A DNA stretch of 64,000 nt. Source: Candidatus Cloacimonadales bacterium (lineage in GTDB: Bacteria > Cloacimonadota > Cloacimonadia > Cloacimonadales > JAIOQZ01). Each line of letters starts with the position of its first letter. Position 1 is the first letter of the stretch. Location: assembly GCA_963665815.1 (NCBI GenBank), contig OY762463.1:3488001-3552000 (forward strand), read 5' to 3'. Shown here one piece after another: positions 4,294 through 60,599 of this stretch. Under the pieces are notes generated by a model, which had not been told where the DNA came from, did not search any database, and saw nothing but the letters and a program-made list of their open reading frames with translations. The position numbers were made by a program, and so were the translations under genes.

Positions 4294-4309
4294 TGCAATT
4301 GCAGTGCCA
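4294..4309 (-). promoter_or_regulatory. Sigma54 -24/-12 promoter for fliD-fliS-flgM
   Basis: Minus strand TGGCAC-TGCAA-TTGCA, consensus with correct spacing. Confidence 0.85.
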
Positions 4310-26146: not shown

Positions 26147-26587
26147 TTAATTTATTATTGGTTTTTCACTTGCAGTATCAGAATCCATTACCCAGTCGAT
26201 TATTTCTTTAACCGTTACTGCATCAGGGTTAGTGAAAAACATAACGTTAGTAATTTTCTGAACTACATTTTTTGTTACTTCTTTATTCATTATCTGATAT
26301 ATACTCATAGATAGACTCACAATTTTCTCAAAAAGATATTCATCTATTGATTGCTTGTGAACAAGTTCAAGCAGATATCCGAATGCTTCACGACTCAAAA
26401 AAACTTTTTCATCTGTTGCTGCAATACGGTGATAACTGTTTTTGCTTTCTTCTTTGAAAATTTCTTTTAACAATCTGCTGATCGCAGGTTCGGTTTCCTC
26501 TCCGAAATTTTCAACCAGAGTTTCATCACTGCCGGTTTTCGATCCATCTATTTTCGAATCATATTTTGTCTTTTTTACTTGATTCAT
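26147..26587 (-). CDS. Smg/DUF494-like protein
   Basis: RIAATDEKVFLSREAFGYLLEL...LFEKIV resembles Smg; lies directly upstream of topA, as smg usually does. Confidence 0.55.
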   Translation of the reverse strand: MNQVKKTKYDSKIDGSKTGSDETLVENFGEETEPAISRLLKEIFKEESKNSYHRIAATDEKVFLSREAFGYLLELVHKQSIDEYLFEKIVSLSMSIYQIMNKEVTKNVVQKITNVMFFTNPDAVTVKEIIDWVMDSDTASEKPIIN

Positions 26588-26595
26588 AAATCCTC

Positions 26596-29500
26596 TTAAT
26601 CCTGACTACTCACTGCTCCACAGCATTTCTTGAATTTTTTGCCTGAACCGCATGGACAAGGATCGTTCCGACCCACTTTCTGATCGACTCTTCTTGGAGC
26701 AACCTTTGGTGGTGGATCAGACTGCTGATTAGTATGAGTTTCCTGAGCAGGTTGATCCAACGGTCTTGTTGAATATGCTGTTATGTTCGCATGAGATGTT
26801 GAAACACCTTTAAGAAGAGATTCAAGCTGTTCTCGAGATGATACAATATAAGTAGTATATACTTTTTTAGTAACATTTTCATATATTCTTGCAATCAATG
26901 TCTCGAACAGTTTAAAACTTTCTTTTTTGAACTCAATTAGCGGATCTTTGTTGGCGTAAGCTCTCATGCCTATGCCATCTTTAAGAAGATCCATTTCATG
27001 CAGGTGGTCTCTCCATTCGCTGTCAACTACATCAAGAAGGGATCTATGCTCTATTTTACGCATGATTTCGCTTGTCAGTTGTTCTTCCCGTTTATCATAT
27101 TCTGTAATCAGGAACTCCTGCATTTTATCCGATAGCCCTTCATGAGAAAGACCATCAGTAGATAGAGGGTCCATTGTCAGATTAAGGTTGTGATTAATCC
27201 ACTGGTAAAGCTTGGTAATATCCCATTCTTCTTCATAGGTGGTTTTTGCAGTGAGAGACATTGCGATATTATCAATTGTGTCTCGTATCATTTCCAAAAT
27301 GATATTCTTCAGGTCGTAACCTTTAAGAACATTTCTACGGAAATTATAAATAACTTCGCGTTGCTGGTTCATTACTTCATCGTATTTTATCAGTTGCTTA
27401 CGTATATTGAAGTTGTGACCTTCAACTCTTTTCTGAGCTTTTTCAACAGTGCTTGTCATCCAGGTGTGGGTTATTTTCTCACCTTCCTGAAAACCAAACT
27501 TTTTCAGCATAGGAGCAATCTTTTCTGAACCGAAAAGTCTCATAAGATCGTCTTCAAGTGACAGATAAAATCTGGATGTACCCGGGTCTCCCTGTCTACC
27601 TGCACGACCTCTTAACTGTCTGTCAATACGACGGGATTCGTGTCTTTCCGTACCAATAACATGCAGACCGTCAATAGGTTGTCCAAATGGAAATTCCTCA
27701 CTGATCTTGTCGGTTGCTTTCAGATAATCTTTCTTGTTCTGAGTTATCACGGTTTCACCAAGTTTAATATCTGTACCACGACCTGCCATATTAGTGGCAA
27801 TAGTTACAGCTCCCGGCTGTCCGGCATTCTTAACAACATCTGCTTCTTTTTCATGCTGCTTTGCATTAAGTACGTTATGTTTTATATTTTTTCTGGATAA
27901 AAGCCTGCTTAATGTTTCAGAAACATCAACAGATACTGTTCCGACCAGAACAGGTTTCTTTCTTTCGTGCCAGTATTCTATTTCTTCAATAATTGCTTTG
28001 TATTTTTCCAGCTTAGTCATTAGAATAACATCATTGTAATCTATTCTGGTAATTGGCAGATTTGTAGGTATAAGCATACATGGAAGATTATATATCTCAA
28101 CAAACTCAGCTTCTTCGGTAATAGCTGTACCGGTCATTCCTGCAAGTTTATCATACATTCTGAACAGATTCTGATATGTGATGGTAGCCAGAGTTTGAGT
28201 CGCACCTTCAATTTTAACTCCCTCTTTCGCTTCCAGAGCTTGATGGAGTCCTTCACTGAAACGTCTACCTGGCATAAGTCTTCCGGTAAACTCATCAACA
28301 ATCATTACCTTGTTGTCCTGAACAACATAATCAACGTCTTTTTCGAAGAGCGAATAACTTCTCAATAACTGAGATATATTATGCAGTTTTTCGCTTTTAT
28401 CGAGGAATCTCTGAGTAGCTTCTTCTTTCAACTCAGCTTTATCCTGATCAGGGAGATTTTCCTGTCTGTCAACTTCTTCAAGCATATCATCAAGTTGCTC
28501 AACAACAAAAAGATTCTGGTCATATCTGTGCAGTTCATTCTGACCTTTTTCACATAAATCTGCAGAATGAGCATGTTCATCTATTACATAAAACAGTTCT
28601 TCATCCAGGACGTGCATCTTTTTATCTCTGAGATAGTAGCCTTCAACATCCTGAATTGATTTTTTAACATCACTGTCTTTAGTCAGTTTCATCAGCTGTT
28701 TATTTTTGGGTGCAGCACGTTTTACTTTCAGGAGGATTTCTCCAACTTCCATCGGATCCCAGTCACCGGAGTCAATCAGCTTCTTTGCATCTGAGACAAA
28801 TCTGTTTGCCATCATATTCTGAGCGTTGACGAGTTTTGATATATATGGTTTGAGTTCAGGATAGAAGTTTTTACTTTCAGCCACAGGTCCACTGATAATA
28901 AGTGGAGTTCTGGCTTCATCAATAAGCACACTGTCAACCTCATCAATTATACAGAAAAAAAGGTCTCTTTGAACAAGCTCTTCTTTTGACCGAGCCATAT
29001 TGTCTCTGAGGTAGTCAAAACCGAATTCACTGTTTGTGCCATAAGTGATGTCACAATTATATGCTTCCTGTTTTACATCAACGCGCATTCCGTTAACAAT
29101 GCAGCCTACATTGATTCCATGAAACTCAAATATCGGTTTCATCCATTCCGAGTCACGCTGAGCAAGGTAATCATTCACCGTAATAAGGTGAACACCTCTG
29201 CCTGTAAGGGCATTCAGAAAAAGGGGAAATGTTGCCACCAGAGTTTTACCTTCACCTGTTGCCATTTCTGCTATGAAACCCTGATGAAGAGCAATTCCAC
29301 CAATTATTTGTACGTCAAATGGAACCATGTGCCAGGTTTCTTCGGAATCCCTGACTCTGTATTTATGTCCCACAAGTCTTCTACATGTATCTTTTACAAT
29401 TGCGTATACTTCAGGTAGGTAGTTATCCAGAGTATTCTGGATATGATCTTTCAGTTTCTTTTTCTGGTCATCCAGTTTATCTCCGATTGTTTCTTTTTTA

Positions 29501-29736
29501 TCTTCATCGGGTTCCTGAATATAATTTTTGTGAGTCTCTTCAATCTCTTCCTGATAAGGTTTTATACTGGACTGTATTTCTTCTTTTATATCAATTACTC
29601 TATTTCGGATTTCATCGTCTGATTTCGATGAAAGTGTTTTATAGACTGATAGAACCTGACTCAAGATTGGCTGAACCTTCTTTAATGCTCTATCATGCTG
29701 GTCTCCAAACACCTTGGTTAATATTTTCTTCAGCAT
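26596..29736 (-). CDS. secA: Preprotein translocase ATPase SecA
   Basis: [63 protein letters not shown]. Confidence 0.99.
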   Translation of the reverse strand: [1046 protein letters not shown]

Positions 29737-30158
29737 ATAATTTTTTCCTCTATTTCAAATACAAACCCAAATGAAGGTTGTATATCTTGTTGTCAATGAT
29801 TACCTGTTTTTTTTGTACTATATAATGTATAGATACAAAAAATAATCTGACCATATATTCATAGTGATCTATAAGTCATAATGCAGCATTTGTAAACAAA
29901 TTTGGATACCGTTATTTTCAGATATCTTTGCATATCCGTGACTTTTGATGAATTGCTGATTTATCATATCAACTTAGAACAACTAAGTTTGATGTCTTTG
30001 CATGATGATATCGGTAAATCCATCAGTGTTTCATTCAGCATTGCATGATTTTTGTGCTCTGCAAAATCTCTCTTTAAATAACGCTTTAAGATTGAATTGT
30101 TACATTTTCATAAGCTTATTAGGAGATTGCGGTGGCATGTATTTAACTTGTGAATTTA

Positions 30159-30509
30159 TCAGGAAATGCTGTTTATGAATTCCAGATACGCATCAAGGAG
30201 TTCGCGTCTATCAACAATAGAATAGCGCTTTCTTATACAGGATGAAATAAAATCATCTATTGCGTCATATGATAACCCTTTAACGAATTTTGTTTCATTT
30301 TCAAGTCCAATTACTCCGATAACTGTTTCCGGGAAAGTAAGTTTGATAGTATTGAAAAGGATATTGTCCGTATTATAGGAATCAGCAGATATCAGAATAA
30401 TACTATCCTGTTTAAGATAGTTCTTCAATTTTTCATTTGTATCGCAAAATACAGCACTCCAACTGAAATCAGCCGGAGTGTTAACATCTTTTATTAATAT
30501 TTGTGACAT
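30159..30509 (-). CDS. Hypothetical protein
   Basis: 116-aa ORF 6 bp after the kinase stop, same strand. Confidence 0.6.
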   Translation of the reverse strand: MSQILIKDVNTPADFSWSAVFCDTNEKLKNYLKQDSIILISADSYNTDNILFNTIKLTFPETVIGVIGLENETKFVKGLSYDAIDDFISSCIRKRYSIVDRRELLDAYLEFINSIS

Positions 30510-30515
30510 ATTTTT

Positions 30516-32171
30516 TTAATATTTGAATATTGATCCAAAAGCAAATTCTCTGACAATTGAGTTTGTTGGCACATAGAAATGGTCGGTAATCGGCTCGAAG
30601 TATCTTAACAAACGGAGGAGTCTTTGCGCTTCTGGATAAACCGGAGAATTTTTCCTTACTGCCTGAAGAAGTGGAGCAGCCTGATTTTTAAGGAACGCCA
30701 ATTCATAGGTAAGACTGCTGTTGAACATAATGTCAGCATTTTCCTGGAATGGGAATATGTTCTTCTCTTCACCTTTTCTGATTGAATCCCAGCGTAAAAG
30801 TGTATCTTCTGCATCATATCCTCTGTAACGAGCATCTCTGACTATTCTCCTGATTTTCCTGCTGTCAGTTGTCGGAATTCTGTTGTGGTAATCAATATTA
30901 AGCTGGTTAAGAGCACTGATATATACTCTGAACTTTGATGAGTCCGGGATTTTTGATGTCAGTATGTCATTCAATCCATGGATACCTTCCATAATAAGAA
31001 CATCATTCTTCTCCAGTTTCATGAATTCATTGCAGTATTCCGGTACACCAGATTTAAAATTGTACTTTGGTACATCAACCTCTTCGCCCTGCAGTAACGC
31101 ATTAAGATGTGAATTCAGAAGCTCAATATCAATTGCATAGATTGATTCAAAATCATATTCGCCTTCAGCTGTTCGAGGTGTTTTTGTTCTGGCAAGGAAA
31201 TAGTCATCCATTCCTATTATTTTAGGTACTAAACCGTTGACTCTTAACTGGATAGCCAGTCTTTTGGCGAACGTTGTCTTTCCAGATGAAGATGGCCCTG
31301 CAATAAGTATTATTTTTACGGATTCCTTTTCTTTAATCATATCAGCAATTCGTGCAATTTTCTTTTCCTGAAGAGCTTCTTCAACATGGATAATCTGTGG
31401 AATCTTGTAATCAGTGATATACTCGTTAAGTTCGAAAACGTTGTGCATTTTTAAAATTCTGAGCCATTTATCGTATTCCTGGTGAATTTCAAACAATTTT
31501 TGAGGGATAGAAAAATCAGAAAGCTCAGTTGATCCGTATTTCGGAATTCTTAAGATAAGCCCGGTCTTGTACGTTTCAACGCCAAATGCATTGATGAACG
31601 ATGTATTCTCTGCAAGTTGTCTTATGTAATAATCATAGTATTGACCGCATTTGTAAACAGTCATTTTGTTTTTGCGTCTGTATTTGAGGTTTCTCAGGAT
31701 ATCAATCCTTCCATGTTCTTTAAAGATATCTTCTGCATCTCTTAGGTTTATCTCGTGTTTTTCGATAGGCAGTTTGTTATTTATAACTTTATTCATCTCA
31801 TTTTGAATATCTTCAGCATCCTTATCGGTAATTTTGTGTTCACCGAATATTTCGCAGAAAACACCGTCAGATATTGAGTGCTCTACAACAAGTTTGGATT
31901 TTATACCATAGAGATTGTAGAAAGCTTTCATCATGATGAAGATTGCGGTATCCTGATATATTCGATATCCATCAAGAGAATTGAGTGTAAGACAGTCAAT
32001 TTTAGTGTTGTGATCAATAAGATAATCTGATGTGACATAGATGTTGTCAATCTTGTATATCATATACGGATTAAGTTCTTCCTCTTGGATTATCTCAGAA
32101 ATAGTCATTGGTCTTGGATAGACAACAGTTTTCTTTCTTACACTATCGATTTTTATTTTTATTGTAAACAC
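30516..32171 (-). CDS. Uridine/nucleoside kinase with ThrRS-like N-terminal region
   Basis: AGPSSSGKTT P-loop, MDDYF, EGIHGLN, RRIVRDARYRG, GEEKNIFPFQE. Confidence 0.9.
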   Translation of the reverse strand: MFTIKIKIDSVRKKTVVYPRPMTISEIIQEEELNPYMIYKIDNIYVTSDYLIDHNTKIDCLTLNSLDGYRIYQDTAIFIMMKAFYNLYGIKSKLVVEHSISDGVFCEIFGEHKITDKDAEDIQNEMNKVINNKLPIEKHEINLRDAEDIFKEHGRIDILRNLKYRRKNKMTVYKCGQYYDYYIRQLAENTSFINAFGVETYKTGLILRIPKYGSTELSDFSIPQKLFEIHQEYDKWLRILKMHNVFELNEYITDYKIPQIIHVEEALQEKKIARIADMIKEKESVKIILIAGPSSSGKTTFAKRLAIQLRVNGLVPKIIGMDDYFLARTKTPRTAEGEYDFESIYAIDIELLNSHLNALLQGEEVDVPKYNFKSGVPEYCNEFMKLEKNDVLIMEGIHGLNDILTSKIPDSSKFRVYISALNQLNIDYHNRIPTTDSRKIRRIVRDARYRGYDAEDTLLRWDSIRKGEEKNIFPFQENADIMFNSSLTYELAFLKNQAAPLLQAVRKNSPVYPEAQRLLRLLRYFEPITDHFYVPTNSIVREFAFGSIFKY

Positions 32172-32182
32172 ATTCCCTCCTG

Positions 32183-32794
32183 TTATTTTCTGCAGATTAC
32201 TGTGAAATCGTTTTCCAGGTAGTCATCAATTATTCTAATATCACTGAACTTTGATTTAATCAGATCTCTGATACTTTCAGGATCATTGTAGAAATATTTA
32301 TCTTCTTTTGCCGTAGATCTTTCATGTAAAAGATTGAATACTACAATGTCATTTGATATTCTGATAAATTTTTCAATTGCCTGCATGAAAAAAATGTGGT
32401 TGTTTTTAAGGTTAAGGTTAAAAATTCCTGATGTATATACGACATCAAATCCGGTATCCTCAAAGATGTTAGATTTGAAAATATCCGCTGTGACAAAAGT
32501 TGTATCAGGATGCTTTGCTTTTGCAGATTCAGTCATTTCATCCAATATATCCACTCCTGTATATTCAATGGATATTTTCAGGTTTTCGCAGTGAGTAAGA
32601 AAATCACCGAGACCTGAGCCTACATCAAGAAATCGTTTATTATCAAGACTCAAATTATCTGTTACAGCTTTAAATCTGAGAAACTGTGCGGATTTGTTTT
32701 CCCAGTCAAGAATAGCTGCATTTTCATTTTTATCAAAGCGCGGTACATAATGCTGCTGAAGTTTTTTATAGTGACTCATTGTTTTCCTTTTCAA
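32183..32794 (-). CDS. Class I SAM-dependent methyltransferase
   Basis: QFLRF, LDVGSGLG, YTGVDI, SGIFN; the true start may be the internal Met at 32779. Confidence 0.85.
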   Translation of the reverse strand: MKRKTMSHYKKLQQHYVPRFDKNENAAILDWENKSAQFLRFKAVTDNLSLDNKRFLDVGSGLGDFLTHCENLKISIEYTGVDILDEMTESAKAKHPDTTFVTADIFKSNIFEDTGFDVVYTSGIFNLNLKNNHIFFMQAIEKFIRISNDIVVFNLLHERSTAKEDKYFYNDPESIRDLIKSKFSDIRIIDDYLENDFTVICRK

Positions 32795-33680
32795 TATTTC
32801 TGGCTTTTGCAGCGCCTTTCCAGCGTTTATGCAGCCACAACCAGTATTGAGGATATTTTTTTATATATTCCTGAATTGTTTCTGATATCTCAGCAGAAAG
32901 CTTATATACAGCTTCATCTGAGAACTCAATATTATCTGTGTAAACCGGTTCAAGGAATATGAGTTTCATATTCTGCTTTTCGTTTCTGACTGTAAAACCA
33001 AACACAATTGGCGTTCCTGTTTTCAAAGCAATTCTGGCAGGTCCTGTATGCACTGATGCCGGTTTGCCGAAAACATCCATCAGAACTCCATCTTTCCCGG
33101 CGTTCTGATCAGCAACAATTGTAACGATTTTTTTTCTTCTGATTGCTGAAAGAATATTTCTCATGGATAACTTGTTGAAAATAATTTCAACACCACTACC
33201 GATTCTTCTTTTATTCATAAATTCATCAAACAGCCTGTTACGTTGTCTCTTTGCGATCGCACAAACCGGTAGTCCTTTAAAGGCAAGGTATCTTCCGGCA
33301 AGTTCCCAGTTCCCGAGATGTGCAGAAATGAGTATGACACCTTTGTTTTTGCTGTAAGCTTCCAGCATATTTTCAAATCCCTCAAGTTCTGTATTTTGGT
33401 AAAATTCATAAGGATCTGAGAAATATGTCTCGGCAGCAGTTCTGCCTACATGCTTGTAAACTTTTACAATCAGTTTATTCATTTCTTTTCTGGAATATTC
33501 AGGAAAAGCATAAGAGATGTGCTTCTTTGTATCTTTAAGTCTTATACGCAGAACAGTTCCGGTAAAAACAAGAATATTTTCAATAAGTGTACAGACTTTT
33601 TTATATGGGACTAATGATAATATAGCGTATAGTATTCTGAATCCTGTATATTCAATAATGTTCTTTTGCTTCTTATTCAT
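32766..33680 (-). CDS. Lipid A late acyltransferase (LpxL/HtrB family)
   Basis: SAHLGNWE, ADQNAG, PQYWLWLHKRWK. Confidence 0.92.
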   Translation of the reverse strand: MNKKQKNIIEYTGFRILYAILSLVPYKKVCTLIENILVFTGTVLRIRLKDTKKHISYAFPEYSRKEMNKLIVKVYKHVGRTAAETYFSDPYEFYQNTELEGFENMLEAYSKNKGVILISAHLGNWELAGRYLAFKGLPVCAIAKRQRNRLFDEFMNKRRIGSGVEIIFNKLSMRNILSAIRRKKIVTIVADQNAGKDGVLMDVFGKPASVHTGPARIALKTGTPIVFGFTVRNEKQNMKLIFLEPVYTDNIEFSDEAVYKLSAEISETIQEYIKKYPQYWLWLHKRWKGAAKARNIEKENNESL

Positions 33681-34381
33681 GGGTTAATCAGCTTTTTCAT
33701 TGTTGCCACTGCTTCATGCAAACCATAAAATACAGCTCTGCTGATAATACTGTGACCTATGTTGAATTCTTCTATTATACCCAGATCTTTAAGAGGAGTG
33801 ATATTTTTATAGTTAATTCCATGACCTGCAACAACACGCATTCTTGCTGATCTGATCATTTTACATGCTTTTTGAATTCTTTTAAGCTCGTCTTCAATTT
33901 CTTCCTGTTTCTTCAGGTTTGCATATTTACCAGTATGGATTTCTACAGCGTCACACTGATACTTGTCCGCCAGTTTTATCATGTCAGGATCAGCTTCGAT
34001 AAACACACTTACTTCTATTCCGGCAGATTTCAGTTCTTCTATTCTTGTCTGAAGATTAGAAATATTCAGTCCACCTTCGGTAGTGAGTTCCTGTCTTCTT
34101 TCCGGAACGAGAGTCACGATGTCCGGTTTTAAAACTTTTGCAATTGTAATCATTTCAGGAGATGCAGCCATTTCAAGATTGAGCTTTGTTTGAACTACGT
34201 GTCTTAGAAGCTCGACGTCTCTCTGCTGTATATGTCTTCTGTCTTCACGCAGATGAACGGTTATCTGGTCTGCTCCGGCCTGCTCTGCAATCAGTGCTGC
34301 CTGTACAGGTTCGGGTTCAATTCCCATTCGAGCTTGTCTCAGTGTTGCAACATGATCTATATTTACTCCCAGAGTTATCAT
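33677..34381 (-). CDS. pdxJ: Pyridoxine 5'-phosphate synthase
   Basis: LGVNIDHVATLRQAR, HLREDRRHI, TTEGGL, EFNIGHSII. Confidence 0.98.
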   Translation of the reverse strand: MITLGVNIDHVATLRQARMGIEPEPVQAALIAEQAGADQITVHLREDRRHIQQRDVELLRHVVQTKLNLEMAASPEMITIAKVLKPDIVTLVPERRQELTTEGGLNISNLQTRIEELKSAGIEVSVFIEADPDMIKLADKYQCDAVEIHTGKYANLKKQEEIEDELKRIQKACKMIRSARMRVVAGHGINYKNITPLKDLGIIEEFNIGHSIISRAVFYGLHEAVATMKKLINP

Positions 34382-34399
34382 AATTTCTCCTTTTATCTG

Positions 34400-35260
34400 C
34401 TAATTGAAAATAGCTTCCGATTCTATTTCTATATTTGCATCAACTCTGAGTTGTTTCAAGTGATTTAACAGATTTAGTTCTGAATCAATCTGGTGAAGTC
34501 TTTTTCTGAGAGCATCTTTAATATTTTCGAATTCAGCAATTCTGCTCTGCTTTTTATCTGTTACCATTATAATGTGATATCCAAAAGATGTTTTAATAGG
34601 TTCACTTATTTCATTAATATTCATGCTGAATGCAGCATCTTCAATTTCTTTTACCATTTTGCCTCTGGCAAAATAACCCAGATCCCCCGCCTGATCGCAG
34701 GAAGGACAGTCAGAGATTGATATGGCATAGTTATTGAAATCTTCCTTATCATGGAGTTGATTTCTGATTTTGTTTGCTTTTTCTTCTGCATCATCAGATT
34801 CATTTCTTACCAGAATATGAGAAGCTTTGACCATTTCTTTAGTAGTGAATTTCTCTTTGTTTTTTTCGTAGAAGTCTTTCAGTATTTCATCAGTATATGA
34901 TTCATTACTTTCTTTAAATTTTTCATAAATATATTTTTCGATGATTATATTGTCTCTTATTCTCTTGCGGAGAGTAACTTCATTAAGCTGTTGTTGTTCC
35001 AGGATATAATGAAACTCATCTTCAGAATCAAATGTCATCATTAAATCGAGAAGTTCGTTATCTATTTCATCCTGAGATACTGATATATCTGCTTTTCTGG
35101 CTTCAGAAAGAAGAAGCACGCCGTCAATCAGGCATTCAAGGGCTCTTTTCCTGCACTCTTGACTGGGCTGCTCAAGCTGCATATTTTTCATCATTCGTAT
35201 CAATTCTACTTTGTATTCCTTATCAGTAATCTCATAGCTGTTCACACTTGCAATTATCAT
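34400..35260 (-). CDS. SurA/PrsA-like parvulin peptidyl-prolyl isomerase
   Basis: VKASHILV, GDLGYFARGKMVKE, PIKTSFGYHII; SurA-N-like helical region; no signal peptide. Confidence 0.88.
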   Translation of the reverse strand: MIIASVNSYEITDKEYKVELIRMMKNMQLEQPSQECRKRALECLIDGVLLLSEARKADISVSQDEIDNELLDLMMTFDSEDEFHYILEQQQLNEVTLRKRIRDNIIIEKYIYEKFKESNESYTDEILKDFYEKNKEKFTTKEMVKASHILVRNESDDAEEKANKIRNQLHDKEDFNNYAISISDCPSCDQAGDLGYFARGKMVKEIEDAAFSMNINEISEPIKTSFGYHIIMVTDKKQSRIAEFENIKDALRKRLHQIDSELNLLNHLKQLRVDANIEIESEAIFN

Positions 35261-35269
35261 TGAGTACTC

Positions 35270-36208
35270 CTAAATGTTCTGTTTTGTAACGAACGATTTT
35301 ACTTGTTCCAATATAGAATAAAAATTATAATCTTCAGATAAAATTGTCAAATCAAAATCCAGTTTTCTAAACCATGTTAACTGTCTTTTTGCATAGTTTC
35401 TTGTGTGCTGACATGCCAGTTCAACACAATCATTCAGTTCAGCTTCGCCTTTTAAGTAAGGAATAAACTCTTTATATCCAATTGAGGAAAATCCCGGGCA
35501 GTTATAGCTGAACCCCATATTTAGTATTTTTTTGATTTCTTTTATCAATCCATCATTAAGCATCTGAGTGATTCGAGTATTGATCCTTGAGTATAATTTT
35601 TCACGGTCAATATTAATGAAAATATCAAAAGAATCCGATTTAGATTGGGATTTCTGATTTTCCCAGTGTTCAGTCTGAGTTACTCCTGTTGATTTCCATA
35701 TATACAGGGAACGTAAAACTCTGTATGTGTCATTCGGGTGGATTCTTCCTGCTGCATCCGGATCAGCCTGTTCTAAAAGCTTGTAGATGAAATCGGATCC
35801 CTTGTCATTCAAAATCTCATCGTAATAAGAAACTACATCCGGAGGTATTTCAGGTGAATCGAACAAGCCTTCCTTAAGTGACTTGATATAAAAACCGGTA
35901 CCTCCAACAATAATAGGTATGACTCCTTCTGCATTCAGGGAAGAAATAATTTTCTCAGCGTCCTGATAATATCTACCTGCATTATAAACCTCATCAGGAT
36001 TGACAATATCAATCATGTGATGTTGTACTGCTTTCATTTCTTCTGTTGATGGTTTGGCTGTTCCAATATTCATATACCTGTATATCTGTCTTGAATCTGC
36101 AGATATAATATCTGTTGATAGTGTTTGAGCCAGCTCCATCGCTAATGATGATTTACCGGAGGCAGTAGGTCCCTGAATCGTAATGAATTTTAATTTGTTC
36201 ATCTTCAC
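35270..36208 (-). CDS. miaA: tRNA dimethylallyltransferase
   Basis: GPTASGKS, DSRQIYR, IGTAKP, VGGTGFY, TRNYAKRQLTW. Confidence 0.98.
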   Translation of the reverse strand: MKMNKLKFITIQGPTASGKSSLAMELAQTLSTDIISADSRQIYRYMNIGTAKPSTEEMKAVQHHMIDIVNPDEVYNAGRYYQDAEKIISSLNAEGVIPIIVGGTGFYIKSLKEGLFDSPEIPPDVVSYYDEILNDKGSDFIYKLLEQADPDAAGRIHPNDTYRVLRSLYIWKSTGVTQTEHWENQKSQSKSDSFDIFINIDREKLYSRINTRITQMLNDGLIKEIKKILNMGFSYNCPGFSSIGYKEFIPYLKGEAELNDCVELACQHTRNYAKRQLTWFRKLDFDLTILSEDYNFYSILEQVKSFVTKQNI

Positions 36209-36325
36209 CTTTCATTTTCATTCTTGAACTCCATTTATAACATTAATACAGACAAGTCCACTTTTTTTTAAAAAAGCGTTGCTAAATTAACACTATATAG
36301 ATGATCAATATAGGAGAGATCGAAT

Positions 36326-36588
36326 TTGAATGAATTAACTGTTCAAAACCTAAGTAAAATTTGTAACGAAACTCTTATCCTCGGGATTTTTTTAATCTTA
36401 AACATGGAACGCTTTACCCTATTCTGCACAGACTTGAAAAAGAAAGTGCAATAAAAGGTGTATGGAACAGGATCGGACAGGTTAAGAAGAAAATTTATAA
36501 GATTACCGAGAAGGGAGTTAAACTGTTTGACTCCTATAAACAACAATGGGAAACCTTCATGAAAATTATGAAATTATTCTGGAGTTAA
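36326..36588 (+). pseudogene. PadR-family regulator pseudogene
   Basis: TTG start after AGGAGA gives MNELTVQNLSKICNETLILGIF; a second frame continues FNLKHGTLYPILHRLEKE...KKIYKITEKG...QW; the HGYEI helix is missing and the frame shifts at a T7 run. Confidence 0.8.
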
Positions 36589-36589
36589 A

Positions 36590-36835
36590 ATGAAAACACA
36601 ACTTCTTAACAGACTTAGGGAAATAGATGAAGCAATAAATTTAAAGCAGTCTGTGAAAGCAAGAATTCTGATGGAGATTTACTATGATATGGAGAACTTA
36701 TACGAAGTGTACAGAAATAATCCGTATTATGAAGATCCCGTGGAGAGGGTGCTGGATTAGTTTTCCATAGATTCTATTGATATTGAAAGTTTACAGAGGT
36801 TATATTTATCTCCAGTAGACAGGCTTTTTTAATTG
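36590..36835 (+). pseudogene. Decayed PadR-partner membrane protein gene (HAAS/permease-prefix-like N-terminus)
   Basis: MKTQLLNRLREIDEAINLKQSVKARILMEIYYDMENLYE...VLD* then in-frame FSIDSIDIESLQRLY after the TAG at 36758; ATG one base after the padR stop. Confidence 0.55.
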
Positions 36836-37135
36836 ATTTCTCCGAATGATCTAAATAAATGGTAGAAATTTCTGGTTCTGGTTTTCCTGATGATACTGTC
36901 AGGTGGATCAATGCAATTGTCTGGTTAGTTCTCAGGCATGGATGTAACAATATTATTGCTCGGAAATAAAGTTTACAATTTTTGTTAAGTAATGTAAACA
37001 TATGATGCTGCTGATCATTTCAGCAGCATTTTCTGCTTGGCTCAGAAAACGATCAGGAAGTAAAAAAAGTTTTCAGCTTGACGGAATATCATTAAAAACT
37101 ATTGTTATGGTAAAATAAACAGAACTGGAGAGATT

Positions 37136-37561
37136 ATGAGAATAACAAGTATTATTGTTCTTTTGCTGGCAGCAATTATGATAACATCCTGTATGGGAAG
37201 TCTAAGAGGGAACCTGAAAGGAATATGGTATATCGAAGAAGATGTATCCGGAATTCTTGCAGGTGTAGACTCTGAGAATGCGGAAATTGAGTTTATTACA
37301 GGTGGTGGTTTGTCACTTTCAACACAAATTCGAGAAAACGTATCAAATGGTTATGGTATGGTTCTGGCGAGAGCGCACTGGAAAATTGAAAAAGGAATTT
37401 TGATTATTAACGTCAAAGGCGATGGTGAATTCATGGAGTCAGGAACTCCTACAGAATTAAGATTCAGAGCTTCTTCTGTATCTGCAACTAGAATTGAATT
37501 AGAAGCTGAAGTTAAAGGTGAATTTAACGGAGATTATATTACTTTAAGAAAAAATAAATAG
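37136..37561 (+). CDS. Lipoprotein, lipocalin-like beta fold
   Basis: ITSC lipobox, LKGIWY, HWKIEKGILII; GGAG RBS; upstream TTGACG-N16-TATTGT. Confidence 0.75.
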   Translation: MRITSIIVLLLAAIMITSCMGSLRGNLKGIWYIEEDVSGILAGVDSENAEIEFITGGGLSLSTQIRENVSNGYGMVLARAHWKIEKGILIINVKGDGEFMESGTPTELRFRASSVSATRIELEAEVKGEFNGDYITLRKNK

Positions 37562-37564
37562 TTT

Positions 37565-37580
37565 TGGCACGCTATTTGCA
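37565..37580 (+). promoter_or_regulatory. Sigma54 -24/-12 promoter
   Basis: TGGCAC-GCTAT-TTGCA. Confidence 0.85.
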
Positions 37581-37590
37581 TATTATATTG

Positions 37591-37656
37591 CTGAAACTAG
37601 TTATTTACATACTTTCCTTGCTTCTTGGGACGCCGCCCGGTGTCCCATTTTTTTTT
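37591..37656 (+). ncRNA. Candidate sigma54-dependent small RNA (~66 nt)
   Basis: Lies between the sigma54 promoter and a strong terminator; no ORF; contains CAUACUUUCCUU. Confidence 0.65.
37626..37656 (+). terminator. Intrinsic terminator
   Basis: TGGGACGCC-GCCC-GGTGTCCCA followed by T9. Confidence 0.9.
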
Positions 37657-37991
37657 ACCCATTAATAATAGTAATTTTTCCATTAACATAATATGCTGTT
37701 CAGTATCTTAAATCCTTATTTGATAGCTAAAATTAGTCAGGAATGCGGGATATGCTGTTAATGGGGGATTGAACTGAACAGTAATACTGTGAAAACTTAT
37801 CCCTTACTTGAGATGTAGTGGTTGAACCACATATGTAATGTGTAGAATATCACTGAAAATGATTTGTGTGAAACAAGTGTAAACAAGGTATCCTTTTTTG
37901 AAGAGGTGTATACAATGTTAACATTGTAGTCTGTGTGTATACGAAGGTGACAGTGTTTCGGCTGTTTACATGGGTTAAATCACGTTTTATA

Positions 37992-38681
37992 CTATATTAA
38001 TCCGGCACCGACAAAAGAATAGTATTCATTGTTACTTATAATGAGATGATCAAGTAGGTGTACATTAATCATATTTATTGCCATTTTAATCTTTTCGGTG
38101 ATTAGAATGTCTTCTTTTGACGGTTGAGTAGTACCACCCGGATGATTATGTACAATAACTATTGATGCTGCATTACATAGAATGATATGTTCAATAATTA
38201 CTCTCAAGTAAATCTTTGCTTCGTTTACAGTACCTTTAAACAGGGTTTCCTCGAACAGGATAGTGTTTTTAACACTGAGGTATATGATCTTGAATTCCTC
38301 ATTCTTGAGCCCCTTGTAATATGAGTGTACATAATTGAAAATATCATCTGAAGACTTGAAGAAATCTTTACCAATAATATGTTCCTGCAAACGGAATACA
38401 TTTACATCTCTGAATAATTTGATAAGAGAAGCTGTTCTCTCACCAACTCCTTCAATTTCAGTCAGTAATTGAGGAGGAGCCTGAAAAACATTATTAAGTG
38501 TATGAAACTTACTTAAAAGTCTTTTAGCTATTGGTTTTGTATCTTTACGTATAATTGAATAGGAGAGAATAATCTCCAGTACTTCATAATCATGAAATCC
38601 TGCCAACCCGTCTTTAAGATATCTTTCTCTCAACCTTACTTTATGCTTTGAGTTCTCATTCCCGTTTATTTCAGAAGCCAT
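37992..38681 (-). CDS. radC: RadC family JAB-domain protein
   Basis: HKVRLRERY, DYEVLEIIL, HhH IEGVG, VHNHPGG...SKEDI, LLDHLII. Confidence 0.93.
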   Translation of the reverse strand: MASEINGNENSKHKVRLRERYLKDGLAGFHDYEVLEIILSYSIIRKDTKPIAKRLLSKFHTLNNVFQAPPQLLTEIEGVGERTASLIKLFRDVNVFRLQEHIIGKDFFKSSDDIFNYVHSYYKGLKNEEFKIIYLSVKNTILFEETLFKGTVNEAKIYLRVIIEHIILCNAASIVIVHNHPGGTTQPSKEDILITEKIKMAINMINVHLLDHLIISNNEYYSFVGAGLI

Positions 38682-39097
38682 TCCAGGTAGTTATCCTTTT
38701 TCACCAGTGAAAAGTAGTTGTACTTTTTCCTGCTTATTTTGTTTTCATCAAATATATCATCAAAGAGAGTAATCACTCTCCTGTGAGACGTAAAGCTTTT
38801 TATAATCAATGCGAATTTTTCCAGCCTAGAACTGAATAACATTTTTTTGTATTCATTTATTACGTTATGCAGTTCCATTAAATTCGAGGTATCTGTTTTA
38901 AGGAATTTAGCATTAAAAACAATGAAGTATCTTGCACTTCGTTTCGCATCATTTTGTACGAACTCAAGACATTGCTTCAATACTTTAGATTCATTACTGA
39001 TTCTTACATTATATAGAAATACTTTCTTTTTTTTATATATTACAATTTCTCTGGATACGGATTCTTCTGCTTGTTCAAACTTATCCCAGATAGGCAT
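38666..39097 (-). CDS. Hypothetical protein
   Basis: 143-aa ORF coupled between asd and radC; AAGGA RBS. Confidence 0.65.
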   Translation of the reverse strand: MPIWDKFEQAEESVSREIVIYKKKKVFLYNVRISNESKVLKQCLEFVQNDAKRSARYFIVFNAKFLKTDTSNLMELHNVINEYKKMLFSSRLEKFALIIKSFTSHRRVITLFDDIFDENKISRKKYNYFSLVKKDNYLEWLLK

Positions 39098-39100
39098 AAT

Positions 39101-40093
39101 TTATCCTTTATTTATTTTATTATGTTTGATCATTATTCGTACGGCATTGGTCGCAGCTCCTACGAATACATTATGTGCAATGTTTACAAAACTTAATGAA
39201 TAATCATCAAGCCCTTTCCTCAGTCTGCATACATGAGAATACTCTCGTTCAGTGCTACTCTCAATAGATTTCGGAGTAATGGTATTCTTGTGAAGTTTAA
39301 CATGCTCTGTCATAGATAGAATATATTCTGCTTTGGAAATATCAACTTTTTTCTTGAATTTTGTGTGTATTGCTATAGTGTGTCCATATATAACAGGAAC
39401 TCTGATTGTTGTAGCGGATACATTTATCTCCTGACAATCAAATATCTTTTGAGTCTCTGTTAACATTTTCAATTCTTCACTGCAATATCCGTTATCTGTA
39501 ATATCACCGATTTGAGGGATTACATTATTACGTATTGGGGCACTGAAGCATGATTCCGTATTGATATTCTTTTCTTCATTTATCAAACTCATTATCCCAT
39601 TATTACCTGCACCTGATACAGACTGATAAGTACTTGTAACAATCTCATCAATGGAGTATTCGTTATGCAGATCTGCCAATGCAATAACCATTTGGATTGT
39701 AGAACAATTCGGATTGGCAATAATACCTTGATAGTCCTTTAAAGTATGGCTGTTTAATTCCGGTACGACAAGAGGGATGTTCTTATCGGATCTGAAAGCT
39801 GATGAGTTATCAATAATAATGCTGCCTGCCTGTGCTGCTATTGGAGAGAAATGTTTTGAGATTGATCCACCGGATGAAAAAAGCAGATAGTCAAATTTCT
39901 CTTTCATGGATTCTTCTGTGAGAGTCTCAACAGAGATTTCTTTATCCCTGAATTTCAATATCTGTCCGGCAGATTTTCGGGAGGCGAAAAGATGCAGATC
40001 AATTTCACTAAAACTGCTGTCTTTGATTGAACTAACCTGTTCAATCATAGCTCTACCTACTGCCCCTGTTGCTCCGACAATACCTATTTTCAT
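39101..40093 (-). CDS. asd: Aspartate-semialdehyde dehydrogenase
   Basis: IGIVGATGAVG, IDNSSAFR, IANPNCSTIQ, STYQSVSGAG; start moved to ATG 40093 (GGAG RBS). Confidence 0.96.
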   Translation of the reverse strand: MKIGIVGATGAVGRAMIEQVSSIKDSSFSEIDLHLFASRKSAGQILKFRDKEISVETLTEESMKEKFDYLLFSSGGSISKHFSPIAAQAGSIIIDNSSAFRSDKNIPLVVPELNSHTLKDYQGIIANPNCSTIQMVIALADLHNEYSIDEIVTSTYQSVSGAGNNGIMSLINEEKNINTESCFSAPIRNNVIPQIGDITDNGYCSEELKMLTETQKIFDCQEINVSATTIRVPVIYGHTIAIHTKFKKKVDISKAEYILSMTEHVKLHKNTITPKSIESSTEREYSHVCRLRKGLDDYSLSFVNIAHNVFVGAATNAVRIMIKHNKINKG

Positions 40094-40173
40094 ATTTTTT
40101 CTCCGATATTCTGGAAAATGAGATTGGGACACTTTTTGTCAAATTATTATGCGAAACAATATAATCTTGCAGG

Positions 40174-41895
40174 TCAATCTTGTTTCTGAACGACAAAAAA
40201 AAGTCTGGAGTATGTTTTGTCCAGTTGCCCCGGATTATTATTAATCAGGTTTCTTGCAGTAGTCATTGAATGTATTCCATGCAGTTGAAGACCTGATTCT
40301 CCCAGCAATCGCATAATAGTTTCTACCGGGAATATAGTCTGCTGATGTAATTCTTCGTGTAACTCGTATCCATAAAACTCACGTCGGAATATTCTCAAAT
40401 GATTTTCCTGAACGTTTTCATCTCTGAAATAATCGCTCATGTGTACAAACAGATCATCTCCGTGCTGTTCTACATTCACAAATCCATCGAAATGCTCAGT
40501 ACAATTGAATACAGTAGAAATATCAAATATGAATAAGCCGTTGTCCTCCAAGGATTCATATACATTGAAGAAGAGCTTAAGAACTTCAAACTCACTCTCA
40601 AGGTAGTTTATACTGTCGAAGAGCAAAAGAATCAGATCATAATCGGTACGGGGGAGTGGTGCTGTCATGTCCTGAAGGAACAGTTCCGGATGGTTTCTCT
40701 TTTTTCTTGCAATCCGCAGCATTCCCGCAGAATTATCAGAAGCATGACACTCGATTCCTTTATTAACAAGTAAGGATGCTACATTACATGTACCGCATGC
40801 CAACTCGTGAACCAGCTTTGGACTTCTCTTCAAAATCTTATTAAATTTCCCGAGAACAAATTTTACCCATTTATCATAGTCAACATGTTCCATATATTTA
40901 TCATAGATATCAGAAAAAGTCTGATAGGAGGAAGGATGTACTTCAGTTTGATATCCGGTAAGCATTTCAGCTTTGTTCAAGGCAGAGATCAAACTCATTT
41001 CTGAGGCTGTTCCTTTACCTGCTATATCAAAAGCAGTTCCATGATCTACTGATGTTCTCACATAGGGAAGACCAAGTGTAACATTAACACCGGAGTTTTT
41101 ATGCAGCATTTTGAAAGGGATTAATCCCTGATCGTGATAGGGAGAGATTACAACATCATAATCATCTGCATGATATGCAAAGAATGTATCTGCCGGGAAT
41201 GGTCCATCAATAGCAATACCTTTCTTTTTAAAATCCTGGATAATAATTTTCATTTCTGAATCTATTGTGCCGAAAGCACCATTTTCTCCAGCATGCGGAT
41301 TTACTGCCAGAAGGGCATATCTCATTCCTGCATAAACAGAATTTATAATGTTACAGGCTGTTGTGATTTTAGTCTTTATTTTTCCAGAAGTAAGCTGCTC
41401 ATATAGTTTTGTGATTTCCACATGAGTAGTCAACAAGGTCAGAATGAACTTGTCTCCCCAGAAACTCATCACAGGATCTTCTACATTGGAATGTTGGGCA
41501 AGATATTCTGTATGACCGATGAAGTCAGGATTGCTTTTTTGTATTTCATGTTTTGATACAGGGCAGGTCACAATTGCCTGGACTTTACCTGAATCTATAT
41601 CTACCAGGATTTTATCCAGAATTCTTAAAGAATATGCACCACTTTGCTCGGATGGTTCTCCCGGTTCAAACTTAGTTTCGGAAATAATGTTAAGCAGATA
41701 AACATCTGCGGGATCAACTGCTTCATCAATGCTGGCAATGATTTTGAATCTGTGGTTGTATTTTTCAAAAACCTGTGCTGAACCGTATACTACATAGATT
41801 GTGTTGCGTGCATGTTTATAGAATTCTAAAGCTTTGGCAGTAATTTCCGGACCTATACCACATGGATCACCTGTACTGATAGCTATTCTCTTCAT
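40174..41895 (-). CDS. pdxA: PdxA fused to a C-terminal class I SAM methyltransferase
   Basis: GDPCGIGPE, GHTEYL, NPHAGE, YHDQGLIP, RTSVDHGTAFDIAG; then YDKYMEHVDY, ELACGT, FDSINYL, GLFIFD. Confidence 0.9.
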   Translation of the reverse strand: MKRIAISTGDPCGIGPEITAKALEFYKHARNTIYVVYGSAQVFEKYNHRFKIIASIDEAVDPADVYLLNIISETKFEPGEPSEQSGAYSLRILDKILVDIDSGKVQAIVTCPVSKHEIQKSNPDFIGHTEYLAQHSNVEDPVMSFWGDKFILTLLTTHVEITKLYEQLTSGKIKTKITTACNIINSVYAGMRYALLAVNPHAGENGAFGTIDSEMKIIIQDFKKKGIAIDGPFPADTFFAYHADDYDVVISPYHDQGLIPFKMLHKNSGVNVTLGLPYVRTSVDHGTAFDIAGKGTASEMSLISALNKAEMLTGYQTEVHPSSYQTFSDIYDKYMEHVDYDKWVKFVLGKFNKILKRSPKLVHELACGTCNVASLLVNKGIECHASDNSAGMLRIARKKRNHPELFLQDMTAPLPRTDYDLILLLFDSINYLESEFEVLKLFFNVYESLEDNGLFIFDISTVFNCTEHFDGFVNVEQHGDDLFVHMSDYFRDENVQENHLRIFRREFYGYELHEELHQQTIFPVETIMRLLGESGLQLHGIHSMTTARNLINNNPGQLDKTYSRLFFVVQKQD

Positions 41896-41954
41896 CGAAA
41901 AGCTCCTGATTATTAATAAGAATCAAACAAAATACAGGTATATAAATTGTAAAT

Positions 41955-41988
41955 AAAAAAGAAAAGGGCTATCATTTAAAGATAGCCC
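41955..41988 (-). terminator. Intrinsic terminator after add-pyrE
   Basis: GGGCTATC/GATAGCCC stem, T-rich tail on the minus strand. Confidence 0.85.
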
Positions 41989-42011
41989 ATATACAATATG
42001 ATATTGTTGAA

Positions 42012-42584
42012 TTACTTCTTATCGCTTGATCCCGGAGTTGTGATAGGATCTCCTGCTTTGCATTGAGGACATTCTTCCGGTAAGTAAGACTGGATATCTA
42101 CAGTATGCAGGGCATAGGTAGGATGTCCGAAATCTGTTTTACCGCCGGATCTGTCTACAATCAGCCCTATAGCAGTTACATTTATTTCTCTTTTCTTGAG
42201 TGCTTCGAGTACTTCAAAAACAGATCCACCTGTTGTAACGATGTCTTCAATGATTATTGCTTTATCACCGGCACTGATTGGGAAACCGTTTCGGATAGTC
42301 ATTTCACCGTCTTTACGCTGTGTAAAAACAAACTTTTTACCAAGTTTCTTTGCTACTTCATAAGCGAGTACAATTCCACCCATTGCAGGACCAACAATTA
42401 TGTCCGCTTCAATATCTTTCAGTTTATCGGCAAGAAGTTCACATAATTGTGATACTTTTTCCGGATCATGTATCAATTTGATTTTCTCAATGTAAGTATC
42501 GGAATGTCTTCCTGAAGTAAGTTTAAAGTGACCTTTAAGTAATGCTTTTGCTTCTATCAGCAATTTTTCAACAGTGCTCATCAA
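42012..42584 (-). CDS. pyrE: Orotate phosphoribosyltransferase
   Basis: GHFKLTSGRHS, GPAMGGI, IIEDIVTTGGS. Confidence 0.96.
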   Translation of the reverse strand: MMSTVEKLLIEAKALLKGHFKLTSGRHSDTYIEKIKLIHDPEKVSQLCELLADKLKDIEADIIVGPAMGGIVLAYEVAKKLGKKFVFTQRKDGEMTIRNGFPISAGDKAIIIEDIVTTGGSVFEVLEALKKREINVTAIGLIVDRSGGKTDFGHPTYALHTVDIQSYLPEECPQCKAGDPITTPGSSDKK

Positions 42585-42591
42585 TCCTCCG

Positions 42592-43665
42592 TTAGATTTT
42601 TTCTTCCAGAATTATTGGTTTTTTCATGTTTTGTTCTTCCAGAACTGACATTTCTGCCAACGCTTCATTCAGTATTCTTACTTTTTCATTGTAAGGATAG
42701 AATGATGATTTGAAGCCGTTAATTATTAGCAACTTGAGTTCCGGATAACTAATTCCGAGTTCATTGATTGCAAGCATGTATTCATCTGTCAAGGTTGTAT
42801 CTGAAATTAATCTGTTATCTGTGTTAAGAGTCACTCTTAAACCATACTCAAGATAGAATGAAAGTGGGTGCTCTTTGATTGATGGTACGGCTTTTGTGTG
42901 CATATTGCTTTTTACGCAGATTTCCAGCGGGATTCTATGGTCATTCACAAAGTTAAGCAGATCGCCGTCTTCTTTCAGTCTGGTACCATGACCGATTCTA
43001 TGGGTTCCACAATATTGCAGAGCCTGATGAATACTGGCAGGACCATAAGCTTCTCCGGCATGTATTGTTACATTCAGGTTATTCTTAAGAGCCAGATCGA
43101 ATGCTTCTTTATGGTCAAGAGCAGGATTATCATATTCAGCTCCGGCAAGATCGAATCCCAGTACACCATTATGCTTGTAGGCAACAGCCAGTTCAGCAAG
43201 TTTAATCGATATCTTCGGATCCATATTTCTGATACCACAGATAATAACACCGGTTTTGATATTGTATTTTCTCTCAGCTTTTCTCAGTCCTCTGATTACA
43301 GCGTCGGAAATCTGAGTAAGTTTAAGACCTTTATCTGTGTGCAGGATTGGAGAATATCTTACTTCCATATATCTGATATTTTCTGCGGCGGCATCTTCAG
43401 CAAGTTCAAAAGCAGTTCTTTCGAGGGCCGCTTCTGTCTGAAGCACGGAAAGCGTAACACCGAAACCTCTCAGGTATTCGTTAAGGCTTTTACATTCTTT
43501 ATCACAGCAGACAATTTTCTTTAAGCTTTTTTCATCGTTAGCAGGGAGTTTGACTTTCTGCTCTTTTGCCAGTTCAAAAATCGTCGGAATTCTCAGAGAG
43601 CCGTCAAGGTGTACATGAAGATCTACTTTAGGCAGCTTGTGAATGAATTCTCTTGTCAATTTCAT
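42592..43665 (-). CDS. add: Adenosine deaminase
   Basis: PKVDLHVHLDGS, TIHAGE, RIGHG, NTDN. Confidence 0.95.
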   Translation of the reverse strand: MKLTREFIHKLPKVDLHVHLDGSLRIPTIFELAKEQKVKLPANDEKSLKKIVCCDKECKSLNEYLRGFGVTLSVLQTEAALERTAFELAEDAAAENIRYMEVRYSPILHTDKGLKLTQISDAVIRGLRKAERKYNIKTGVIICGIRNMDPKISIKLAELAVAYKHNGVLGFDLAGAEYDNPALDHKEAFDLALKNNLNVTIHAGEAYGPASIHQALQYCGTHRIGHGTRLKEDGDLLNFVNDHRIPLEICVKSNMHTKAVPSIKEHPLSFYLEYGLRVTLNTDNRLISDTTLTDEYMLAINELGISYPELKLLIINGFKSSFYPYNEKVRILNEALAEMSVLEEQNMKKPIILEEKI

Positions 43666-44118
43666 ATATTCCTCCTTAAATATTTTATATTTTAATGTTG
43701 TATTTCAGGTTGTCAGAACTGAAGTTCTGTAACTCATAATAAGATAACTATTACGCTGAGAATGCAAAATATTTAGTTCATACTGCAAAGTCAGCTTAAC
43801 ATGCAATTTTACTATTTTGTTCAGAAGCTTGTCAATAAATATGTTGAAATTCAGTTGAGGGGTATTCTTGTAAATCACAGTTCATGCATTTATTGAGACA
43901 ACCGTCCGATTGCCTCTACGCGAGTGGTAGAATTTCTCAAGTTTGTACCTACACTTAGCAAGTCGTTTATGGAACACTGTCAAACTTTATGCACACCCAA
44001 ACAGTACAAGTTCCTCCTTGTGGGAGGAAAGATATCCGAAAGAAAATAAAGGAGGTTAATTACATAGTATAAACCGAAGACATGGTTGGATGGAGTGTGT
44101 ACAACGCTATATCAAAAT

Positions 44119-60115: not shown

Positions 60116-60357
60116 CTTATAGCCTCCTCAGGACATTTTGTCACACAATCACCGCATTGCTTGCATTTCGACTGGATTATTGAAGCTTTCCCGTTTGTAA
60201 TTACAATTGCATCATGGGGACAGGCATCTCTGCACTTTCCACAGGATATACATGCATCCTTGTCTATGGAATATTCAAATGATGTTGCTTTTTTACAACC
60301 TGCAAAAACAGCGAACACGAATGAAAGAGCTAAGAATATATAGAGGGCTTTTCTCAT
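60112..60357 (-). CDS. Lipoprotein 2x[4Fe-4S] ferredoxin
   Basis: MRKALYIFLALSFVFAVFAG-C lipobox; CISCGKCRDACP and CKQCGDCVTKCP; ATGA overlaps on both sides support start 60357. Confidence 0.88.
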   Translation of the reverse strand: MRKALYIFLALSFVFAVFAGCKKATSFEYSIDKDACISCGKCRDACPHDAIVITNGKASIIQSKCKQCGDCVTKCPEEAIR

Positions 60358-60599
60358 TTTATTGCTCCGAATGTACATGTTGTAAGACAGAGTTTACAGT
60401 TGATGCATTTCTCTGTGTCAATCACAGCTTTGCCTTCTGATACTGTTATTGCCTTTACCGGGCATACTGTCTGGCAGTCTCCACATCCGGCACAGTCTGA
60501 CTGTATAACGATCGGTTTTTTATCTTCAGATTTCGCATTACCTGCAAAAACGATGAAAACCAGAGAGAGTAAAAATATTATTATAAATGTTTTCTTCAT
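60354..60599 (-). CDS. Signal-peptide-bearing 2x[4Fe-4S] ferredoxin
   Basis: MKKTFIIIFLLSLVFIVFAGNA; CAGCGDCQTVCP and CINCKLCLTTC. Confidence 0.88.
   Translation of the reverse strand: MKKTFIIIFLLSLVFIVFAGNAKSEDKKPIVIQSDCAGCGDCQTVCPVKAITVSEGKAVIDTEKCINCKLCLTTCTFGAIK

Follow-up and report, generated by a model that had tools for sequence, protein, structure and literature searches.

The Qrr RNAs of Vibrio depend on sigma-54 and on LuxO, are transcribed from their own promoter, and consist of a fully conserved single-stranded pairing region and an intrinsic terminator, acting at the starts of mRNAs. GlmY/GlmZ and NrsZ are longer and structured RNAs for which activator-binding sites are known, GlmY serving as a protein decoy and NrsZ being processed. 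DapZ and MicL are small RNAs (sRNAs) of 3' untranslated regions (3' UTRs), with a promoter inside the coding sequence that is read by other sigma factors, and the icaR mRNA of Staphylococcus aureus carries in its 3' UTR a pyrimidine-rich motif that pairs with the ribosome-binding site of the same mRNA. Control by sigma-54 is described for Qrr (PMC10162802, PMC3352281) and for GlmY/GlmZ and NrsZ (PMC3045617, PMC4253122, PMC3162934). In Campylobacter jejuni the RpoN-dependent CJnc230/FlmE lies directly 3' of a protein gene and represses through the ribosome-binding sites of its targets; it is transcribed together with flgE, starting at the sigma-54 promoter of that gene, and is released by RNase III, and it has an RpoD promoter as well (PMC11187230). 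The sRNAs under sigma-54 are known mainly from Proteobacteria and Campylobacterota, where they occupy key points of decision in quorum sensing, the supply of cell-envelope sugars, nitrogen use and flagella.

Here we analysed a stretch of 64 kb of DNA from a member of the Cloacimonadales (64,000 nucleotides, about 2% of the source genome, called the window hereafter) and describe in it a unit of about 95 nt, from promoter to terminator, that is placed between the stop codon of a lipoprotein gene and that gene's terminator (Table 1). Cloacimonadota is a phylum without cultivated members that is often met with in anaerobic digesters and other anoxic settings, and a search of the literature found no report of a small RNA in it. 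The comparison was made with one relative, L001, which is a 20-kb locus of a Candidatus Cloacimonadales MAG found in a scan of genome contigs and carrying a 74% relative of the lipoprotein. We favour, with somewhat better than even confidence and on the strength of sequence, a reading in which the unit would give a small RNA of about 63-67 nt, driven by sigma-54 and ending at the terminator that the lipoprotein mRNA uses as well. Such a unit would offer a tangible way into sigma-54 signalling in the Cloacimonadota lineage studied here, and it is easily tested because it is so compact. It would also be a clear-cut example of a sigma-54 promoter lodged in a 3' UTR where an enhancer has no obvious place.

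The unit as predicted is like Qrr in being a short RNA with its own sigma-54 promoter, a fully conserved open region and an intrinsic terminator, action at start regions being here a proposal. Unlike Qrr it has no Rfam match, no second copy in the 84 kb of window and L001 together and no activator gene alongside, and it belongs to a different phylum. With FlmE it has in common that an RpoN-type RNA stands immediately downstream of a protein-coding gene, but the unit has its sigma-54 promoter after the stop codon and ahead of the RNA, and its upstream neighbour is non-flagellar; FlmE is, by this analogy, a functional and not a structural analogue. The Campylobacter precedent invoked in a preliminary description of this DNA owes its dependence on RpoN to co-transcription with flgE and to processing (PMC11187230), and it lends that description no support. 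GlmY/GlmZ and NrsZ resemble the unit as small RNAs from sigma-54 promoters, but no activator-binding site is evident at the unit. As in DapZ and MicL, the terminator is common with the upstream mRNA and a separate promoter is found near the end of the gene; here, however, that promoter is of the sigma-54 type and is found immediately beyond the stop codon. The likeness to icaR is a 3' UTR pyrimidine-rich motif complementary, by our prediction, to the start of the same mRNA, whereas the pairing is only marginally above shuffles and is weak in L001.

Table 1. Positions of the features in the window and their identity to the relative L001.
Feature	Position	Strand	Description	Identity to L001
Second exact sigma-54 site	4294-4309	-	about 90 nt 5' of the fliD start (4204)	
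miaA	35270-36208	-	one flank of the lipoprotein/unit locus	
Lipoprotein start region	37121-37150	+	GGAGAG, AUG and first codons; rank 1 of 80 start regions, -18.6 kcal/mol	
Lipoprotein gene	37136-37561	+	ORF, 141 aa; stop codon 37559-37561	
Lipoprotein coding sequence	37136-37558			329/423 (77.8%)
Third codon positions of the lipoprotein coding sequence	37136-37558			86/141 (61%)
Stop codon to end of T-run	37559-37656			96/98
Promoter zone	37562-37590			29/29
TTG frame, 33 codons	37564-37665	+	overlaps the unit; begins upstream of the predicted RNA start	
Sigma-54-type promoter TGGCACGCTATTTGCA	37565-37580	+	TGGCAC-N5-TTGCA, exact consensus match	
Predicted small RNA, about 63-67 nt	37591-37656	+	start placed by the usual spacing after the -12 element	
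Open, pyrimidine-rich 5' region	37591-37625	+	candidate pairing surface, unpaired in the centroid fold; holds the seed	35/35
Seed CATACTTTCCTT	37608-37619	+	inside the open 5' region	
Intrinsic terminator	37626-37656	+	hairpin 37626-37647, T9 37648-37656	29/31
DNA after the T-run	37657-37895		unalignable	42.7% of columns
radC	37992-38681	-	other flank of the lipoprotein/unit locus	

Promoter, predicted RNA and terminator

The promoter begins 3 bases past the lipoprotein stop codon, with the GG of its -24 element (37566-37567) and the GC of its -12 element (37578-37579) at the canonical spacing (TGGCAC-N5-TTGCW), and it also fits TGGCACG-N4-TTGCA, which we take to be a longer form of the same consensus. 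Exact matches to TGGCACNNNNNTTGCW on both strands of the 64-kb window number 2 against 0.05 expected, none of 100 shuffles reached two or more, and both sites are intergenic, all of which bears out the consensus promoter claimed in the preliminary description. When one mismatch is allowed the window gives 2 matches against 1.69 expected, which is chance level, and a degenerate pattern gives 9 against 7.92 expected and thus no signal; since both looser motifs are at chance, it is the exact match alone that is informative.

The second exact site precedes fliD (1877-4204, minus strand), the start of which is itself preceded by a GAGGAG ribosome-binding site. Its place before fliD-fliS suggests that sigma-54 may read at least the late flagellar genes in this Cloacimonadales lineage, and it would lend indirect support to the use of sigma-54 by the organism. 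The flagellar genes of the window, taken with its match to L001, make the source organism a flagellated member of Cloacimonadales; flagellar genes are reported from 5 Cloacimonadota genomes in a study whose set comprised 22 public genomes and 24 others (bioRxiv 10.1101/2021.10.08.463351). The suggestion that the small RNA itself belongs to the flagellar regulon found nothing in its favour beyond the promoter type that is common with fliD. No sigma-54 or activator domain was detected among the 56 window proteins and 3 extra L001 proteins scanned, no inverted repeat common to both genomes, as a sign of an enhancer, was seen within about 265 nt upstream of the promoter, and within the unit nothing resembling a sigma-70 promoter was flagged. 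Some sigma-54 activators work without DNA binding. Nothing usable on rpoN or sigma-54 in Cloacimonadota was found in the literature.

Downstream of the promoter come roughly 35 nt rich in A/U and C/U and then a strong terminator, placed 46 nt past the predicted RNA start, whose hairpin has 9 pairs (6 of them G-C) and a 4-nt loop. The predicted RNA folds at -16.8 kcal/mol (z = -3.73), a value equalled by 0 of 200 shuffles, and its centroid consists of the terminator hairpin alone, leaving the first 35 nt open, in agreement with the single-stranded-looking stretch, the GC-rich 9-bp stem and the run of nine Ts that had been described. The terminator is the sole one downstream of the lipoprotein gene, as had been surmised when it was proposed that it may serve that gene too, and because it is shared the lipoprotein mRNA would have the unit as its 3' UTR. 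There is, on the other side, nothing else for the promoter to drive, because the next plus-strand ORF of at least 90 aa beyond the unit begins at 48911 and the DNA that follows the T-run cannot be aligned with L001.

In the mechanism that we propose for the sigma-54-driven small RNA, RNA polymerase with sigma-54 would bind the -24/-12 promoter, an activator protein would fire it, and transcription would run from about 37591 to the hairpin-T9 end at 37656. The product would be an unstructured, pyrimidine-rich 5' arm of 35 nt followed by the terminator hairpin, and the lipoprotein mRNA would carry the same sequence at its 3' end. The free arm would most likely pair with ribosome-binding and start-codon regions of mRNAs, lowering their translation.

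Across bacterial RNA biology the unit is an expected kind of element, and it is in no Rfam family. At the gathering thresholds of Rfam 15 only 3 tRNAs pass in the whole window, and the unit falls in none of the families, Qrr and GlmY/GlmZ included; with E allowed up to 10, the best match at the locus is to sRNA71, whose threshold of 50 bits it misses with a score of 20.8 (E = 1.6). This cmscan-type search agrees with the unit having been called unannotated. Paralogous promoter-seed-terminator units, for which a search had been recommended, were not found in the window and L001: the 20-nt core with up to 3 mismatches retrieves in each of them the unit itself only, and blastn-short with the 95-nt unit against both returns itself and its L001 counterpart, the remainder being exact chance words of 10-11 nt. 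The unit is also without a match in plasmid and phage collections.

Conservation between the two genomes

The L001 locus is syntenic with window positions 26430-43857 (SecA, miaA, lipoprotein, radC, asd, pdxA, add), with a mean identity of 81.8% over 16,113 aligned positions, and the unit stands there in the same place with an identical promoter (L001 10430-10445). The identity values (Table 1) rise at the unit above those of the lipoprotein gene before it and fall again after the T-run; in the predicted RNA 64 of 66 positions are identical, and the probability of at least 96 identical positions among 98 at an identity of 61% is 1.8e-18. The conserved block begins in the last codons of the lipoprotein gene, 16 nt before TGGCAC, and ends at the last T of the terminator, so that the pattern of identity between window and L001 gives it sharp edges. 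The two L001 differences are on opposite arms of the hairpin, where C-G becomes U-G and G-U becomes G-C, and all 9 pairs are kept; these stem changes are one-sided and, with one relative, are no true two-sided covariation. As measured by this comparison of sequences, the whole unit is under strong purifying selection and its edges coincide with the promoter and the terminator; the conservation from stop codon to T-run, set against the diverged coding sequence and the diverged flank, indicates a selected and discrete unit. Conservation of promoter and seed in relatives had been set beforehand as a refutation test of the preliminary description, and in L001 both are identical throughout whereas the flanks have diverged.

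The exact run of 82 nt at the unit is exceeded by two others in the comparison of the loci, one of 135 nt at 42511, over the add/hpt-like gene junction, and one of 89 nt at 35286, inside miaA. In genomes that are 82% identical overall, such runs (42511-42645, 135 nt; 35286-35374, 89 nt; 35232-35280, 49 nt) cover an add/hpt-like gene junction, the 3' end of miaA and the start of the next gene, and they could be embedded regulatory signals or the result of recent recombination. The region 41850-43300 is unusually similar to L001 throughout, from which it follows that these genomes undergo local recombination. It is unlikely, however, that a recombined tract of about 108 nt should coincide exactly with promoter and terminator.

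Candidate targets and competing readings

To the 80 start regions scanned, which were taken from crude gene calls, the RNA pairs no better than its shuffled versions: the best start region reached -18.6 kcal/mol, and 60.5% of 200 shuffled RNAs had a best that was as good or better. Among these regions no target stood above the shuffles. The mean pairing energy over the 80 regions is -10.07, against -10.22 for shuffles, and with the two being equal the RNA has no general anti-ribosome-binding-site property. When the window and L001 were scanned on both strands for duplexes, only the unit's own antisense rose above background. The seed had been described as the complement of a ribosome-binding site plus start codon; it is indeed there, within the fully conserved open region, but its complement, with up to 2 mismatches, is found 11 times in the window (10.02 expected) and 5 times in L001 (3.26 expected), counts that each include the unit's own minus strand and are at chance level. 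The start of a ferredoxin frame at 60599 (81 codons, 60354-60599, minus strand), formerly put forward as a candidate target, took rank 5 of 80 at -14.6 kcal/mol and was rejected as unremarkable against shuffles.

The first rank is held by the start region of the neighbouring lipoprotein. Positions 6-35 of the RNA form with it 25 pairs in five helices, covering the GGAGAG, the AUG and the first codons, and the corresponding duplex of L001 has 21 pairs and -13.5 kcal/mol. Among 2000 shuffled RNAs 2.75% were as good at this duplex in the window and 9.2% in L001; among 2000 shuffled start regions the shares were 1.6% and 6.2%, and 0.85% of the shuffled RNAs satisfied both duplex conditions jointly. 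When the reverse complement of the RNA is aligned without gaps to the 5' end of the lipoprotein gene, the likeness is only modest. The modelled duplex would make the lipoprotein mRNA the best candidate target in view for the free arm, in a manner that is suggestive only.

The same pairing may be placed in a different scenario, to which we give a rather low but appreciable probability, in which the unit would be a cis-acting element in the 3' UTR of the lipoprotein mRNA and there would be no separate RNA. Its pyrimidine-rich stretch would fold onto the ribosome-binding site and start codon of its own mRNA, limiting translation or setting stability, and the sigma-54 match would be incidental or secondary. 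Conservation extends over the whole sequence between stop codon and terminator and takes in positions that a sigma-54 promoter does not need; because these non-core positions of the promoter zone are also identical throughout, the promoter alone is no explanation and the stretch may also act as RNA in the mRNA 3' UTR. In the 541-nt mRNA fold 16 nt of the open region pair with the start region at probabilities of 0.83-1.00 each in the window, with core pairs at 0.62-0.81 in L001, and the summed pair probability of the two regions in the window, 21.05, is matched by only 2 of 84 shuffles. In both genomes the minimum-energy fold of the read-through mRNA includes a helix of 9 bp in which 37559-37567 (stop codon and -24 element) pairs with 37591-37599 (the first 9 nt of the predicted RNA), and which cannot form in the short transcript. 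Shuffled 3' UTRs, however, show considerable pairing with the start region too (means of 9.8 in the window and 4.9 in L001), the L001 sum of 9.55 is reached by 16 of 89 shuffles, and in L001 two changes on the side of the start region break pairs. It is, moreover, very unlikely that an exact sigma-54 consensus of 11 positions, at 0.05 expected per 64 kb, should fall by chance at the 5' edge of a conserved block of about 100 nt.

The sigma-54-driven small RNA that we favour and the cis role of the 3' UTR are not mutually exclusive. A reading that unites them, and that we consider doubtful, would have the unit as the first riboregulator in the candidate phylum Cloacimonadota, switched by sigma-54 and mirroring the start region of its own neighbour. 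It would work in two modes, damping in cis as the 3' UTR and shutting down in trans the lipocalin-like lipoprotein and probably other envelope mRNAs; given that the RNA mirrors the lipoprotein start region, it may under this two-mode reading have arisen by inverted duplication of the 5' end of the gene.

It is improbable that the site acts as a roadblock, with the sigma-54 holoenzyme bound to it without productive transcription and its stable closed complex braking the lipoprotein transcript. Non-productive and intragenic sigma-54 sites are reported in enterobacteria, the binding site 3 nt past the stop codon is perfect and no conserved upstream enhancer is evident, as such a roadblock would have it, but the complete conservation between site and terminator (35/35) would be left unexplained. 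We strongly disfavour an ordinary lipoprotein terminator accompanied by a chance sigma-54-like motif and a functionless spacer: although the gene has no other terminator behind it and sigma-54-like motifs with one mismatch are at chance level, spacer and motif are identical at 64 of 64 positions as compared with 61% at the neighbouring third positions, and identity collapses past the T-run. Least credible of all is that the 33-codon TTG frame encodes a small hydrophobic membrane peptide, since, although both genomes keep the frame open and it would give a hydrophobic product, no ribosome-binding site was seen by eye before the TTG, the C-terminus and the length differ between genomes (33 codons in the window, 42 in L001), identity is complete at every codon position, unlike in the lipoprotein gene alongside, the FFF tail is the terminator T-run, and the 42-aa L001 form has no similar predicted protein, which shows only that no gene caller reported such a peptide. 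The earlier statement that the unit holds no ORF has to be amended for this overlapping frame and otherwise stands, as the frame has no visible ribosome-binding site and no conserved end.

The lipoprotein gene and other features of the window

The window is low in G+C (0.32-0.41), and its proteins include FliD, FliS, TonB-dependent receptors, a lipid A acyltransferase, SecA, a NusA/IF-2 cluster and many ferredoxin-like proteins. The signal peptide of the lipoprotein ends in ITSC, which is a lipoprotein signature. Besides the protein itself, its relatives among 5.8 billion clustered proteins are two, one at 82% (P0002) and the other, at 74%, in L001; it has no Pfam or NCBIfam family even with E up to 1, and its AlphaFold model, made from 3 sequences, is unusable (mean pLDDT 34.4). 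The lipoprotein is an orphan, for which a protein atlas provides a lead to Bacteroidota lipocalin-like lipoproteins (score 0.92).

Between miaA and the lipoprotein gene lies a PadR-family regulator in truncated form, its 73-codon frame (36367-36588, plus strand) lacking a start codon and matching positions 25-71 of 75 of PF03551 (E = 1.9e-11). Its N-terminal part is apparently in another frame, 36314-36454, and the stretch 36270-37063 that holds the fragment is absent from L001. Elsewhere in the window two frames of 88 and 81 aa (60112-60378 and 60354-60599, both on the minus strand) have, as judged by eye, cysteine-rich 4Fe-4S-like motifs, together with N-terminal leaders that look like signal peptides. 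They adjoin a 736-aa protein (60609-62819, minus strand) with ferredoxin domains and fibronectin type III repeats, an association that might mean that iron-sulfur proteins are exported.

A second conserved non-coding block, 37903-37972, corresponds to about 10744-10813 of L001, where 60 of 70 positions are identical in otherwise unalignable DNA; it lies 20-90 nt past the radC stop codon and contains a perfect 18-nt palindrome, TACAATGTTAACATTGTA, at 37911-37928, with a single mismatch in the L001 copy. Neither strand of the block folds better than shuffles (z = -0.43 and -0.12) and further copies of the palindrome were not found in our search; the block may be a protein-binding site.
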